NCBI RefSeq assembly: GCF_013122565.1
Contig: NZ_CP053258.1
From: Escherichia coli
GTDB taxonomy: Bacteria; Pseudomonadota; Gammaproteobacteria; Enterobacterales; Enterobacteriaceae
Reading direction: 5' to 3' (one strand)
DNA length: 64,000 nt
Below are positions 37,189 to 42,735 of this stretch, in pieces (within the stretch, counting starts at the first letter, position 1; each line of letters starts with the position of its first letter). Position numbers and translations under genes: made by a program. The notes below the pieces were generated by a model, which was not told where the DNA came from, ran no database searches, and was given only the letters and a program-made list of their open reading frames with translations.

Positions 37189-37593
37189 ATGGATCAGGTC
37201 GTTGTTTTTCAAAAGATGTTTGAGCAAGTGAGAAAAGACCAAAACTTTTCCTGGTTTTATTCAGAATTAAAACATCACCGTATTGCACATTACATTTATT
37301 ATCTGGCTACGGATAACATCAGAATTATTACTCACGATGACACGGTTTTGTTATTAAGAGGAACCAGGAACCTGTTAAAAGTTAGTACGACCAAGAATCC
37401 TGCCAAAATAAAAGAGGCCGCATTGCTTCATATTTGCGGAAAATCTACATTTCGGGAATACTGTTCAACACTGGCAGGCGCGGGCGTTTTCCGGTGGGTT
37501 ACTGATGTTAATCATAACAAACGCAGTTACTACGCCATTGATAATACGCTTTTATATATTGAAGATGTAGAAAATAATAAACCATTAATCTAG
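37189..37593 (+). CDS. ycgX: uncharacterized protein YcgX
   Basis: 134-aa ORF; synteny between bluR and iraM. Confidence 0.8.
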   Translation: MDQVVVFQKMFEQVRKDQNFSWFYSELKHHRIAHYIYYLATDNIRIITHDDTVLLLRGTRNLLKVSTTKNPAKIKEAALLHICGKSTFREYCSTLAGAGVFRWVTDVNHNKRSYYAIDNTLLYIEDVENNKPLI

Positions 37594-37796
37594 CTAAAGT
37601 TGGAAGCTTAAGAAATGCTTCATAATTCAGTAAGGCATTAGCATAATGGAACTAAAAGTGCAGAGACTATTCCTATAGATCTTATACTGCCTTTTTATTG
37701 CCATCCATAGATGTTCAGTAGACCAATACTATAAAATTGATATTGAAATGTGCTCCCTTGCTTATTGATACATTATTTTATACGGTTAGTTTTCCT

Positions 37797-37832
37797 CTAA
37801 AAACAACGGGCGTGCTATACGCCTGTTTCAAG
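37797..37832. repeat. terminator-like hairpin, imperfect copy of the icd terminator at 39091..39119
   Basis: AAAAACAACGGGCGTGCTATACGCCTGTTTCAA vs AAAAAAACGGGCGTGTTATACGCCCGTTTCAA ~1.3 kb away. Confidence 0.6.
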
Positions 37833-37969
37833 GCTTAACTCATATGAATTTTTCTTTATTTTTCATCACGTTATAATTTTTAACCAGCAACGAATTATCC
37901 TTCACTATAAAGTTCAATAGTTGAGACCTTATCCTCATGTCATGCGTATATTCATCATAATGATCCTTA

Positions 37970-37998
37970 GACAAAAAAAGCCAACCATGATGGTTGGC
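37970..37998 (-). terminator. orphan rho-independent terminator on minus strand
   Basis: GCCAACCA-TGA-TGGTTGGC hairpin, followed on the minus strand by TTTTTTT; no annotated minus-strand gene ends here. Confidence 0.5.
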
Positions 37999-38220
37999 AA
38001 AGTGGCACAAAGTAGCATAAAGGCTATGCTTTAATTACAGGAGGTTCAGACATTTGAATGTATATCGTTTTATCTAAACAGAACTAAAACGAAGTGAATG
38101 ATTTCATTTTTTCACTAAATCTCATTTTGTTTAATCTCTGTTGAGATTCCTTGTTTTAAATTTTGCTTTATATAAACAATAGCTTTATTTTTTAAATTGA
38201 TTTTTAGGTAATATAGAAAA

Positions 38221-38475
38221 ATGCAAAATCAAGGAATGAATATCCAAAGCAAACTATACGCATATTTAAATAAATATGACACTCGTCTTACAGAAGAAAA
38301 AATTGCGATTGAGAAAGCCATTAGAGAGTTACATTTTAGCAGCGAGCATGTTGATAACAAGAAAATAATACTGAAGTTACTATCATTTTTATCATATACA
38401 GATGATGTTGTCGAAAAAGACATTATCAGAAATGCATTGGAAGTGGTTCTTCTTTTTACTTCCGATGATATTTAA
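38221..38475 (+). CDS. AriR/YmgB-family small protein (paralogue of ariR)
   Basis: 84-aa ORF; C-terminal NKKIILKLLSFLSYTDDVVEKDIIRNALEVVLLFTSDD aligns with Ari[39 protein letters not shown]; weak RBS. Confidence 0.65.
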   Translation: MQNQGMNIQSKLYAYLNKYDTRLTEEKIAIEKAIRELHFSSEHVDNKKIILKLLSFLSYTDDVVEKDIIRNALEVVLLFTSDDI

Positions 38476-38717
38476 TTGAATTCATTAATTTTATTATCAT
38501 AATTATTTTCCGGACACTACATTTTTTACTTATGTTTAATAATAACCACTGCGAATGAGGGACGCACAGGTATATTTTTCTCACACCTGTGATGTAAAAA
38601 CACGATAAAATCCAAATAAAGAATAAAATTTGCGACCCCACCAGATGGATTGCATCACACATTATTATTCAAAATATTTATCAACATCATTAATAGCCGA
38701 AGGATAAGACATAACAA

Positions 38718-39041
38718 ATGAAGTGGATAGTAATTGACACGGTAATTCAACCTACATGCGGTATATCTTTTTCAGCCATATGGGGTGATATGAAAATGAT
38801 CGTCTGGTATCAATCTACTATATTTCTCCCTCCTGGCAGTATATTTAAACCGGTTAAATCTGGTATTATCTTTAAGGATAAAGAATACCCTATTACTATT
38901 TATAACATCGCACCATTCAACAAGGATTTATGGAGTTTACTCAAAAGCAGTCAAGAGTGTCCTCCAGGAGAAAGCAAAATAACAAATAAATGTTTTCATA
39001 ATAGTTGCATTATAAAAATATGCCCATATGGGCTCAAGTAA
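38718..39041 (+). CDS. iraM: anti-adaptor protein IraM (RpoS stabiliser)
   Basis: 107-aa [15 protein letters not shown]...ICPYGLK; matches my recollection of K-12 IraM; position adjacent to icd 3' end. Confidence 0.8.
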
Positions 39042-39090
39042 AGGGTTTCATATAAATATGCTCGATATGCTATTAATAATACCTACATAA

Positions 39091-39119
39091 ATAAAAAAAC
39101 GGGCGTGTTATACGCCCGT
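39091..39119 (-). terminator. rho-independent terminator of icd
   Basis: ACGGGCG-TGTTATA-CGCCCGT hairpin followed on minus strand by TTTTTTTAT, 25 bp downstream of icd stop. Confidence 0.8.
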
Positions 39120-39143
39120 TTCAATATTTAAAACATGGAGAGA

Positions 39144-40394
39144 TTACATGTTTTCGATGATCGCGTCACCAAACTCTGAACATTTGAGCAGCTTAGCGCC
39201 TTCCATCAGACGTTCGAAGTCATAAGTTACGGTCTTCGCGTTGATTGCGCCTTCCATACCTTTAACAATCAGGTCTGCGGCTTCAGTCCAGCCCATATGG
39301 CGTAACATCATCTCTGCGGAGAGAATAATAGAGCCTGGGTTAACTTTGTCCTGACCGGCATATTTCGGCGCAGTACCGTGGGTGGCTTCAAACAGGGCGC
39401 ATTCGTCACCGATGTTTGCGCCAGGGGCGATACCAATACCACCAACCTGCGCTGCCAGGGCGTCAGAAATGTAGTCACCGTTCAGGTTCATACAGGCGAT
39501 AACGTCGTATTCAGCCGGACGTAGCAGGATCTGTTGCAGGAACGCATCAGCGATCACGTCTTTAATGACGATCTCTTTGCCGGTGTTCGGGTTTTTAACT
39601 TTCAGCCACGGGCCGCCGTCGATCAGTTCACCGCCAAACTCTTCACGCGCCAGCTGGTAGCCCCAGTCTTTAAACGCGCCTTCGGTGAACTTCATGATGT
39701 TACCTTTGTGCACCAGGGTCACAGAGTCACGATCGTTAGCAATTGCGTATTCGATCGCTGCACGAACCAGACGTTTGGTGCCTTCTTCCGAACACGGCTT
39801 AATACCGATACCGCAATGTTCCGGGAAACGAATTTTCTTCACGCCCATCTCTTCACGCAGGAATTTAATCACTTTCTCGGCGTCGGCAGAGTCAGCTTTC
39901 CATTCGATACCCGCATAAATGTCTTCCGAGTTTTCACGGAAGATAACCATATCGGTCAGTTCAGGGTGTTTAACCGGGCTTGGAGTGCCCTGATAGTAAC
40001 GTACCGGACGCAGGCAGATGTAGAGATCCAGTTCCTGACGCAGGGCAACGTTCAGAGAGCGAATACCGCCACCTACTGGAGTGGTCAGCGGGCCTTTAAT
40101 GGCAACGCGATATTCACGAATCAGATCAAGGGTTTCAGCAGGCAGCCAGACATCCTGACCATAAACCTGTGTGGATTTTTCACCGGTGTAAATTTCCATC
40201 CAGGAGATTTTACGCTCGCCTTTATAGGCTTTCTCGACTGCAGCGTCGACCACTTTCAGCATGGCTGGGGTTACATCTACACCGATTCCATCACCTTCAA
40301 TGTAAGGGATAATCGGATTTTCAGGAACGTTGAGTTTGCCGTTTTGCAGGGTGATCTTCTTGCCTTGTGCCGGAACAACTACTTTACTTTCCAT
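39144..40394 (-). CDS. icd: NADP-dependent isocitrate dehydrogenase
   Basis: 416-aa ORF matching K-12 Icd; intact 3' end with no prophage junction. Confidence 0.97.
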
Positions 40395-40854
40395 TCACCT
40401 CTCCTTCGAGCGCTACTGGTTTGCTCGTCTGCCACCACGTTGCATATGCGTTTGCGTCCTGCGATACGGATGCTTTAGAGCAATTTTTTGTTAATGATTT
40501 GTAATTGGCTTGTCAATACTACCCTATTGTTTGCCGTCATGAAAGATGCGCGTTATTAGGCTATAATGCGGCAATTCATAATCTCTGAAAATACCATGCA
40601 AAAAACTTCTTTTAGACCAAAGACAGTATTTTCCCGACCTTCAAATAAAGTATTAAATATCAATTATTTACACCAGACTTTAAGCAATAAAAAAACCACC
40701 AGAGATAACTAACAGGGTGCTATTTGGTCAAAATTTGACATTACTCGATTCAGCGACTAACTCACTTTGAGCACTATTGGGAAAATTATCAAAAGTCATG
40801 GTTGAAGCGACAAGCAACGAGTAAATTATGGCATCCACCCTTTTTGAGGTTCAC

Positions 40855-40947
40855 ATGAAACGCTTTGCACTGATAGCTGTGACACTCATTGCCTTTACTG
40901 GTTCTAGTTCTGCATCTGCTGCAACCGAAGAAATCAACTTCAAGTAA
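40855..40947 (+). CDS. 30-aa mini-ORF with signal-peptide-like sequence
   Basis: ATG 40855 with GAGG SD at 5-nt spacing; MKRFALIAVTLIAFTGSSSASA-ATEEINFK; same frame as downstream 149-aa ORF, separated by two stops. Confidence 0.35.
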   Translation: MKRFALIAVTLIAFTGSSSASAATEEINFK

Positions 40948-40980
40948 CAGAAACACTATATAACAATGGAGTGTTGAAAA

Positions 40981-41430
40981 ATGGATACTACCGAAGAACG
41001 CAATGGAACATATTTCTACAGAGGACACCCGAACCTGTCCAAAATAGAACTACTCAACGTCATATTCCTTGAAGAATTCTGTAAGGAATTGGGGATTGAT
41101 TCGGTATCAGGTGCAGCAATCTTATCTGGTCAACCTTGGCTGGGTACAAGAGCGAAGCCGGAAGGGGCAACCCTGGGAACAAGTGTTGTCTCAAAGTATG
41201 CGCGTATACTGATGAGAGATGCACGCATGCCTTTTGGTATTTCTGTTCATACAACAGTGGGTGTAAGGATGCAGAAATCTAATAAGCTTGCTGCAATTAT
41301 CGCTCGTTGGGTCCCGTGGATTGGTTGGGCTTCACTGTCGATGAGTCTTTACAGGATTTCGACTCGTACCCAGGAAAAATACAATCTGATTGCCAAACCT
41401 CAAGACCGTATTAAGTGGACTTCCTTCTAA
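40981..41430 (+). CDS. hypothetical basic protein (149 aa), first gene of an islet gene pair
   Basis: ORF from track; net positive charge; AGA/AGG codons rare in backbone; stop overlaps start of next ORF (TAATG). Confidence 0.6.
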   Translation: MDTTEERNGTYFYRGHPNLSKIELLNVIFLEEFCKELGIDSVSGAAILSGQPWLGTRAKPEGATLGTSVVSKYARILMRDARMPFGISVHTTVGVRMQKSNKLAAIIARWVPWIGWASLSMSLYRISTRTQEKYNLIAKPQDRIKWTSF

Positions 41431-41765
41431 TGGCGACAACAATCACAGACGAAGTTTTAGCACTGTTCCGTGATGAGATTCCAGGTTATCAGGATGATCA
41501 CGGGAAGGAAATTCCGTTAGAACTGGACTCTGATTTGTTCGACTATCCACGAGATGATTTAGAGGACGCTATACGGAAATACAAAGAGAGGTTTGGGATT
41601 AACCTGGATAATCTGGAATGGTCTTTGTACCTTCCGTGGGAGTCTGCACCATTGCTTCAACGATGGTTCAAGCTCAAGCGGGAAGAGGTAGAAACAACAC
41701 GTTTACCGTTAACTGTACGGATGTTTGCAGAATCAGCAGAAGCGGGAAAATGGCTGTATCAGTAG
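41430..41765 (+). CDS. hypothetical acidic protein (111 aa), second gene of an islet gene pair
   Basis: ATG 41430 overlaps upstream stop (TAATG coupling); strongly acidic (MATTITDEVLALFRDEIPGYQDDHGKEIPLELDSDLFDYPRDDLEDA); track ORF begins at in-frame ATG 41415. Confidence 0.6.
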   Translation: MATTITDEVLALFRDEIPGYQDDHGKEIPLELDSDLFDYPRDDLEDAIRKYKERFGINLDNLEWSLYLPWESAPLLQRWFKLKREEVETTRLPLTVRMFAESAEAGKWLYQ

Positions 41766-41773
41766 AATAAAAA

Positions 41774-41800
41774 AGAAGGCTGCGATGCCCTTCTTATTAC
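41774..41800 (+). terminator. weak terminator-like hairpin after the islet gene pair
   Basis: AGAAGG-CTGCGATGC-CCTTCT hairpin 9 bp after stop, followed by TATTACT (poor T-run). Confidence 0.35.
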
Positions 41801-42096
41801 TGCTGATGATGGTAGTGGTAAAGCATCATCCTGAACTTAAACAGTGAAGTGCTGTCACCCATCAGTAATACAGAAACACTATTTTCATACCAGTATTTAT
41901 TCAATTCATCAATGTAAAATGTGTTCATTGGGCCATATTTATCACCATGCAGCCACACAACCGCTGCTCACTAACCCAGGTATTGATGAAACCGCGCTGA
42001 AGAGCCTGAACCCTGAACCTCTAACGAGTACCTTCAAAGTCCAATGCAATCCGACACTGTGCTAACCTCTGCGTATAGCTCTATTTGGAATTTACC

Positions 42097-42735
42097 ATGA
42101 AATACTTTAGCGATTCTAAATCTTCTTTTAGAAAAAAACAGGTTAGTCGACTAAACTCGCAACACACCACTAAGCGTAAACCTGAAAACCAGCCCACGCG
42201 TGTGATCCTGTTCAATAAACCCTACGATGTTCTTCCGCAGTTTACCGATGAAGCCGGGCGCAAAACATTAAAAGAATTCATCCCGGTTCAGGGCGTTTAT
42301 GCAGCAGGTCGTCTTGACCGCGATAGCGAAGGGTTACTGGTGCTGACCAATAACGGCGCGTTGCAGGCGCGTTTAACCCAGCCGGGCAAACGCACCGGAA
42401 AAATCTATTATGTGCAGGTGGAAGGTATTCCCACACAAGACGCACTTGAAGCCTTGCGCAATGGCGTAACCTTAAATGATGGCCCTACCCTGCCCGCAGG
42501 CGCGGAGCTGGTTGAAGAACCCGCGTGGTTATGGCCGCGGAATCCACCAATTCGTGAACGCAAAAGTATTCCCACCAGCTGGCTGAAGATCACCTTATAT
42601 GAAGGACGTAATCGCCAGGTGCGCCGCATGACCGCCCATGTTGGTTTCCCCACGCTGCGACTAATTCGCTATGCGATGGGTGATTACTCTTTGGATAATC
42701 TTGCCAATGGCGAATGGCGAGAAGTGACAGATTAA
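42097..42735 (+). CDS. rluE: 23S rRNA pseudouridine synthase RluE
   Basis: Body matches K-12 RluE ([22 protein letters not shown]...GEWREVTD); start uncertain (ATG 42097 or TTG 42085) and N-terminus may differ from K-12. Confidence 0.85.

Follow-up and report, generated by a model that had tools for sequence, protein, structure and literature searches.

Organization of the icd–iraM region

The window (the whole stretch of DNA analyzed, 64 kb) consists of core genes in a collinear order, namely dhaM, treA, umuDC, minCDE, bluFR, ycgX, iraM and icd, which continues with rluE, phoPQ, potABCD, lolCDE and mfd. The icd and iraM genes are convergent and the gap between them corresponds to the span originally reported; the features of the region are collected in Table 1. 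The Icd ORF matched the NCBIfam Icd equivalog with an E-value of 5e-259 and its product is 99.8% identical in amino acid sequence to Icd of K-12, the sole difference being E398 in place of D398 in K-12. The IraM protein displays 94.4% amino acid identity to its K-12 counterpart and the gene is named iraM in the annotation of the matching genomes.

Table 1. Features identified in the icd–iraM region and the neighboring rluE gene (positions in the window).
Feature	Position	Strand	Basis
Left 44-nt direct repeat; orphan hairpin resembling a terminator, located between ycgX and the iraM islet	37800..37843	.	repeat search
iraM islet between the repeats, 1.25 kb	37844..39092	.	30% G+C vs 48% in the window
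YmgB/AriR-family ORF, 84 aa, intact, between ycgX and iraM	38221..38475	+	Pfam YmgB, E 1e-15
iraM, RssB anti-adaptor, 107 aa	38718..39041	+	NCBIfam IraM, E 2e-50
Intergenic gap between convergent iraM and icd (originally reported span)	39042..39143	.	ORF coordinates
attB identity block, very probably unoccupied, 218 nt: last 165 nt of icd, 3' UTR and terminator	39091..39308	-	phage and e14 matches
Right copy of the 44-nt direct repeat; icd terminator region	39093..39136	.	repeat search
Predicted icd intrinsic terminator: hairpin, then T-run	39096..39122	-	terminator scan and folding
icd, NADP-isocitrate dehydrogenase	39144..40394	-	416-aa ORF, full length, single copy
Inferred crossover core ATGTTACGCCA	39298..39308	-	left edge of phage/host identity
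STM2901-family ORF in the rluE islet	40981..41430		
DUF1493 ORF in the rluE islet	41415..41765		

The terminator scan detected a hairpin of 11 stem pairs followed by T7, starting 21 nt past the icd stop codon. The predicted fold of the minus strand had an energy of -21 kcal/mol (z -4.5) and the same hairpin, read on the plus strand behind iraM, reached -24.2 kcal/mol (z -4.8). With its G+C-rich hairpin, its T-run and its position just past the stop codon, the 39096-39122 sequence has the properties of a putative intrinsic (Rho-independent) terminator of icd, which would also close the convergent iraM gene. An Rfam search of the 36500-42500 region returned only sub-threshold hairpin matches, among them tpke11 (25.7 bits, with the gathering score at 43), and these were dismissed as terminator look-alikes. 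The preliminary description had placed the end of icd at 39144, a terminator within 25 bp of it and iraM next, and these coordinates proved right.

The 3' end of icd as a phage attachment site

The attB used by e14 and phage 21 in E. coli is located in icd (Hill et al. 1989 and Wang et al. 1997, both cited in PMC10111431 and PMC11148124). In the window, 28 Escherichia phage records (phage 21 and 27 others) matched the sequence from position 39091 to 39302/39307, i.e., over 212-217 nt, with 89-94% identity. Phage 21, ev017, 4A7 and the Lambda_2E9 group are among them. The 218-nt block at the end of icd is homologous to the icd' and terminator segment located at the attP of these free lambdoid phages.

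The crossover core was deduced from the sequences themselves. In an alignment of the attP regions of phage 21 and Lambda_2E9, attL/attR of K-12 and attL of O157, the identity between phage and host begins at the ATG of the 11-mer occupying positions 39308-39298, and in K-12 the first e14-specific base directly follows this 11-mer. Strand exchange would accordingly fall within positions 39298-39308 or so, which are 155-165 nt inside icd as counted from its stop codon. Of the 218-nt block, the reported span (39042-39143) includes no more than the distal end, and the core is located outside this span, inside icd.

The 11-mer reads ATGTTACGCCA in the window and ATGCTGCGCCA in K-12, e14 and phage 21, the difference being a TTA instead of a CTG Leu codon, that is, two synonymous positions. 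The TTA variant was also considered as a block to integration, and this was rejected since the same variant occurs in the attP of Lambda_2E9-type phages and in attL of O157. Over the first 63 nt of the block, the Lambda_2E9 attP region and the window have the same sequence, and judging from the sequences the site would probably be fully competent for the Lambda_2E9-type phage group. Its competence for e14 itself is uncertain because the core differs from that of K-12 at the two synonymous positions.

Tyrosine integrases of the phage 21/e14 family would use the 39091-39308 block, empty here, as attB. These phages carry the final 165 nt of icd and the terminator as a copy of their own, and owing to this copy an exchange at the 5' edge of the block (about 39298-39308) would permit insertion with icd kept intact. 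An occupied site would then show an integrase gene about 110 bp past the icd stop codon and, on the opposite side of the prophage, an orphan piece of icd (icd'). In the window, one full-length icd passes straight into its own terminator, with no orphan icd' and no adjoining integrase.

Search for prophage sequences beside icd

As a reference, e14 was taken from K-12 (positions 1196209-1211412, 15.2 kb), where it has the 165-nt icdC pseudogene next to it and iraM beyond. A blastn comparison of the whole 15.2-kb element with the window gave a single match, between e14 positions 1-216 and window positions 39308-39093 (84.7% identity), which corresponds to the icd 3' end and terminator copied by e14 itself. 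A sensitive self-search with the 39042-39400 sequence revealed no second coding copy of icd in the 64 kb, as the preliminary description had claimed.

In tblastn searches of the window, IntE and XisE gave no match below E 0.4, and the same was true for Int21 and Xis21 of phage 21 and for the int/xis probes from the O157:H7 prophage. An int fragment from a Nissle derivative, used as a tblastn probe, was likewise negative. Seven to ten further e14 proteins had no tblastn match in the window below E 0.26, with the exception of YmfK, whose match to umuD was attributed to a shared LexA-type peptidase fold and not to an e14 remnant. The annotated arm-site consensus of phage 21, YYTTCCCCAAAA, was absent from the window. 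The e14-occupied arrangement, comprising e14 DNA, intE/xisE and icdC between icd and iraM, was not found in the window.

Genomes with an occupied site provided positive controls. In O157:H7, genes for an excisionase and an integrase were located 113 bp from the icd stop codon, and in the Nissle derivative an integrase remnant was detected beside icd. Scanning contigs for the terminator hairpin yielded seven loci, which were used as outgroups and further controls. Here the same integrase probes detected integrases in E. albertii and in three Citrobacter-like contigs, adjoining icd or within about 6 kb of it. The earlier claim that no integrase or phage gene lies at icd, for which a search of the window for int/xis homologues had been proposed as a check, was borne out by negative searches, the integrase probes having performed well in the controls.

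The site is, with a probability of roughly 93%, an ordinary unoccupied attB of the phage 21/e14 integrase family, and no observation spoke against this reading. A site never occupied and a site cured of its prophage would look alike here because precise excision is scarless.

State of the icd junction in other E. coli genomes

Junction probes were compared with 5426 complete E. coli genomes, with at least 80% coverage of the probe taken as a match, so that the counts are approximate. The empty site, with iraM and icd contiguous, was detected in 3013 of the 5426 genomes (55.5%). A phage-21-type integrase was found beside icd in 1686 genomes (31%); the O157 integrase, which is of this type, is 98.4% identical to Int21. 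An e14-type attL junction was present in 385 genomes (7%). Among the matches to the e14 probe, 278 records had a best match of at least 99% identity, and the top matches listed were K-12 laboratory strains. In some strains of the remaining roughly 6%, icd directly adjoins ycgX. The ycgX–icd probe matched 1133 genomes, but this number was not accepted as an estimate of empty sites lacking iraM, since the probe holds only 205 nt of icd and the required 80% coverage is also reached by an attR with icdC. A published survey detected e14 in 19% of 638 genomes (PMC6379469). The empty icd attachment site is the majority state in E. coli; it is already known and ordinary.

The census also bears on the location of iraM, which has been stated to be 'on the e14 prophage' (PMC4045071). 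This statement needs correcting since iraM is located beside a prophage-free icd both here and in the 3013 genomes with the empty junction. The iraM gene is chromosomal and not part of e14.

The iraM islet and the 44-nt repeat

The repeat search revealed two copies of a 44-nt sequence in direct orientation, 1.29 kb apart and 82% identical, with an E-value of 8e-7 against the whole window. The right copy coincides with the icd terminator region; within the left copy a weak minus-strand terminator call was obtained at 37823..37809. A duplicated att core adjacent to icd was among the findings that the preliminary description had named as speaking against a prophage-free site. The 44-nt terminator repeat is a duplication near icd, but it is not the e14/phage 21 core, it flanks iraM and K-12 shares it, so the claim of a prophage-free site stands.

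Both copies of the repeat are present in K-12 and in ET201 as well. In K-12, the ymgB-family ORF between ycgX and iraM was removed by a deletion of about 430 bp and only its first 25 nt or so remain. Strain A25 has a single copy of the repeat and no iraM, with icd joined to ycgX, and the E2348/69 and ST131 strains, which also lack iraM, matched the ycgX–icd junction probe over its full length. At the icd 3' end of A25 (positions 3872-4157 of locus L003), the last codons ATCAAGAATATG and the terminator variant TAACGGGCG are common to the phage-supplied ends of O157 and Nissle.

Full-length homologues of IraM with 64.5% amino acid identity were found in 46 phage records, mostly of Stx2 (Stx2a, Stx2c) phages. 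In Stx2_EH2201, the one phage locus examined (L017, 5001-5324), the iraM homologue is located between stx2B and a gene annotated as yjhS, encoding 9-O-acetyl-N-acetylneuraminic acid deacetylase.

It is conceivable, but doubtful, that an older integrative element once inserted at the icd terminator and then decayed, leaving the iraM islet as its relic and the 44-nt repeats as what remains of its attL and attR. The direct repeat at both borders of the islet would agree with such an origin, as would its match to the distal end of the segment that phages integrating in icd bring with them, the low G+C content of the islet, the existence of alleles resembling an empty site, with one repeat copy and no iraM (A25, E2348/69 and ST131), and the cargo with homologues in phages. 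However, the islet contains the YmgB-family ORF and iraM only, with no integrase or other mobility remnant detected in it, and no icd' fragment was found near the left repeat by blastn with a word size of 7 or by tblastn with the Icd C-terminus in the 37594-38717 region. The 44-nt repeat could have other origins, and the iraM-less state could be the product of a later deletion between the repeats; the A25 sequence hints that the endpoints of such a deletion may have been the left repeat and a terminator brought in by a phage. Since K-12 shares the repeat, the repeat tells nothing particular about the strain studied here.

If the islet were such a relic, the RpoS anti-adaptor IraM would be domesticated phage cargo older than e14, and iraM-less lineages such as ST131 and E2348/69 would either have the site empty or have lost the islet through a deletion mediated by the repeats. 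As to how a regulator of the stress response came to this hot spot, the repeat flanking iraM offers a modest clue. A literature search on iraM and icd combined with horizontal transfer yielded nothing relevant.

Another terminator-like hairpin, GCCAACCATCATGGTTGGC followed by T7, was identified inside the iraM islet at positions 37980-37998 on the minus strand. It is a strong one and no minus-strand gene is annotated there. The hairpin may mark an unannotated transcript; an Rfam search at this position found nothing.

Native or phage-supplied end of icd

In K-12, which is occupied by e14, the expressed end of icd is supplied by e14 and the original end is icdC. Alignment with these two K-12 junctions, a check proposed in the preliminary description, showed that the 60 nt past the icd stop codon of the window differ at 3 positions from the icdC side and at 24 positions from the e14 side, and the downstream flank is therefore of the native type.

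The coding part of the block is less uniform. Its first 63 nt, which are shared with the Lambda_2E9 attP, TTA codon included, differ from K-12 icdC at 5 sites, whereas in the distal 100 nt there are 4 differences from native icdC and about 12 from the phage. The last 165 nt of icd also diverge more from K-12 (9 differences from icdC and 15 from e14) than the upstream 1086 nt (27 differences, 2.5%). Wang, Whittam and Selander are said to have reported in 1997 a phage-driven replacement of the icd 3' end. Such a pattern might be expected if the site had once held a prophage that left not by clean excision but through homologous recombination in the duplicated 165-nt block, with a mosaic 3' end of icd as the result. 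This history is unlikely: the mosaic signal comes from only about six polymorphic sites, the variants at them are all synonymous and occur in other unoccupied strains, e.g., ET201, and ordinary recombination among E. coli lineages would yield the same pattern.

That a prophage is present in the real genome and was lost from the window by an assembly artefact is highly improbable, as no point in support of it was found, the junction reads through without a break and is matched along its full length by 3013 independent complete genomes, and the flank past the icd stop codon is of the native type.

The reading of the locus as an ordinary unoccupied attB has modest consequences. The empty icd site is of little import in itself; it can be used to mark strains and offers a clean reference for attB. 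It predicts that the strain could be lysogenized by phage-21-like viruses.

Relation to K-12 and to the nearest genomes

A second islet of roughly 1.5 kb is located within the 5' end of rluE (40596-42130) and contains the STM2901-family and DUF1493 ORFs. The ancestral start of rluE, ATGCAAAAAACTTCTTTTAGA (40596-40616), is orphaned and a replacement start is found at 42097. An 11-13-nt repeat, CTTCTTTTAGA, occurs at both borders of this islet. ET201 also carries the rluE islet, and no such islet occurs in K-12, A25, O157, Nissle, E. albertii, E. whittamii and Citrobacter.

The best identity of the window to any of the 5426 complete E. coli genomes was 97-98.5%, reaching at most about 98.5% over large parts. 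The nearest ones were ET201 (from a frog), PT62 (pigeon), MB53 (poultry) and LHM10-1. The gene order bluR-ycgX-ymgB-like-iraM-icd-STM2901 family-DUF1493-rluE in ET201 is identical to that of the window, and so is the icd 3' allele; PT62, MB53 and LHM10-1 matched the window in the junction and flank searches. The source of the DNA appears to be a sparsely sampled lineage.

The preliminary description had concluded from the e14-free icd and the two islets that the strain is not K-12-like at these sites. The part of this argument drawn from the islets holds, but the e14-free state alone is no marker of a non-K-12 strain, since most E. coli genomes show it, as do derivatives of K-12 that lack e14. 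In NEB10-beta/DH10B, an e14-free K-12, the junction is empty in the same way, with icd passing directly into iraM, and the K-12 derivatives JM83 and JM109, which lack e14, share this state (PMC11148124). The case for a non-K-12 strain is built on other differences. Over the 36900-40500 region, the window and NEB10-beta are about 94% identical, in a match that covers only 86% of the region. The e14-cured K-12 strains have no ymgB-like gene between ycgX and iraM and K-12 has no islet in rluE, whereas the window has both. The two islets, together with the approximately 94% identity to the K-12 derivative NEB10-beta, set the strain apart from K-12, with which it shares the e14-free junction only in the cured derivatives of the latter.
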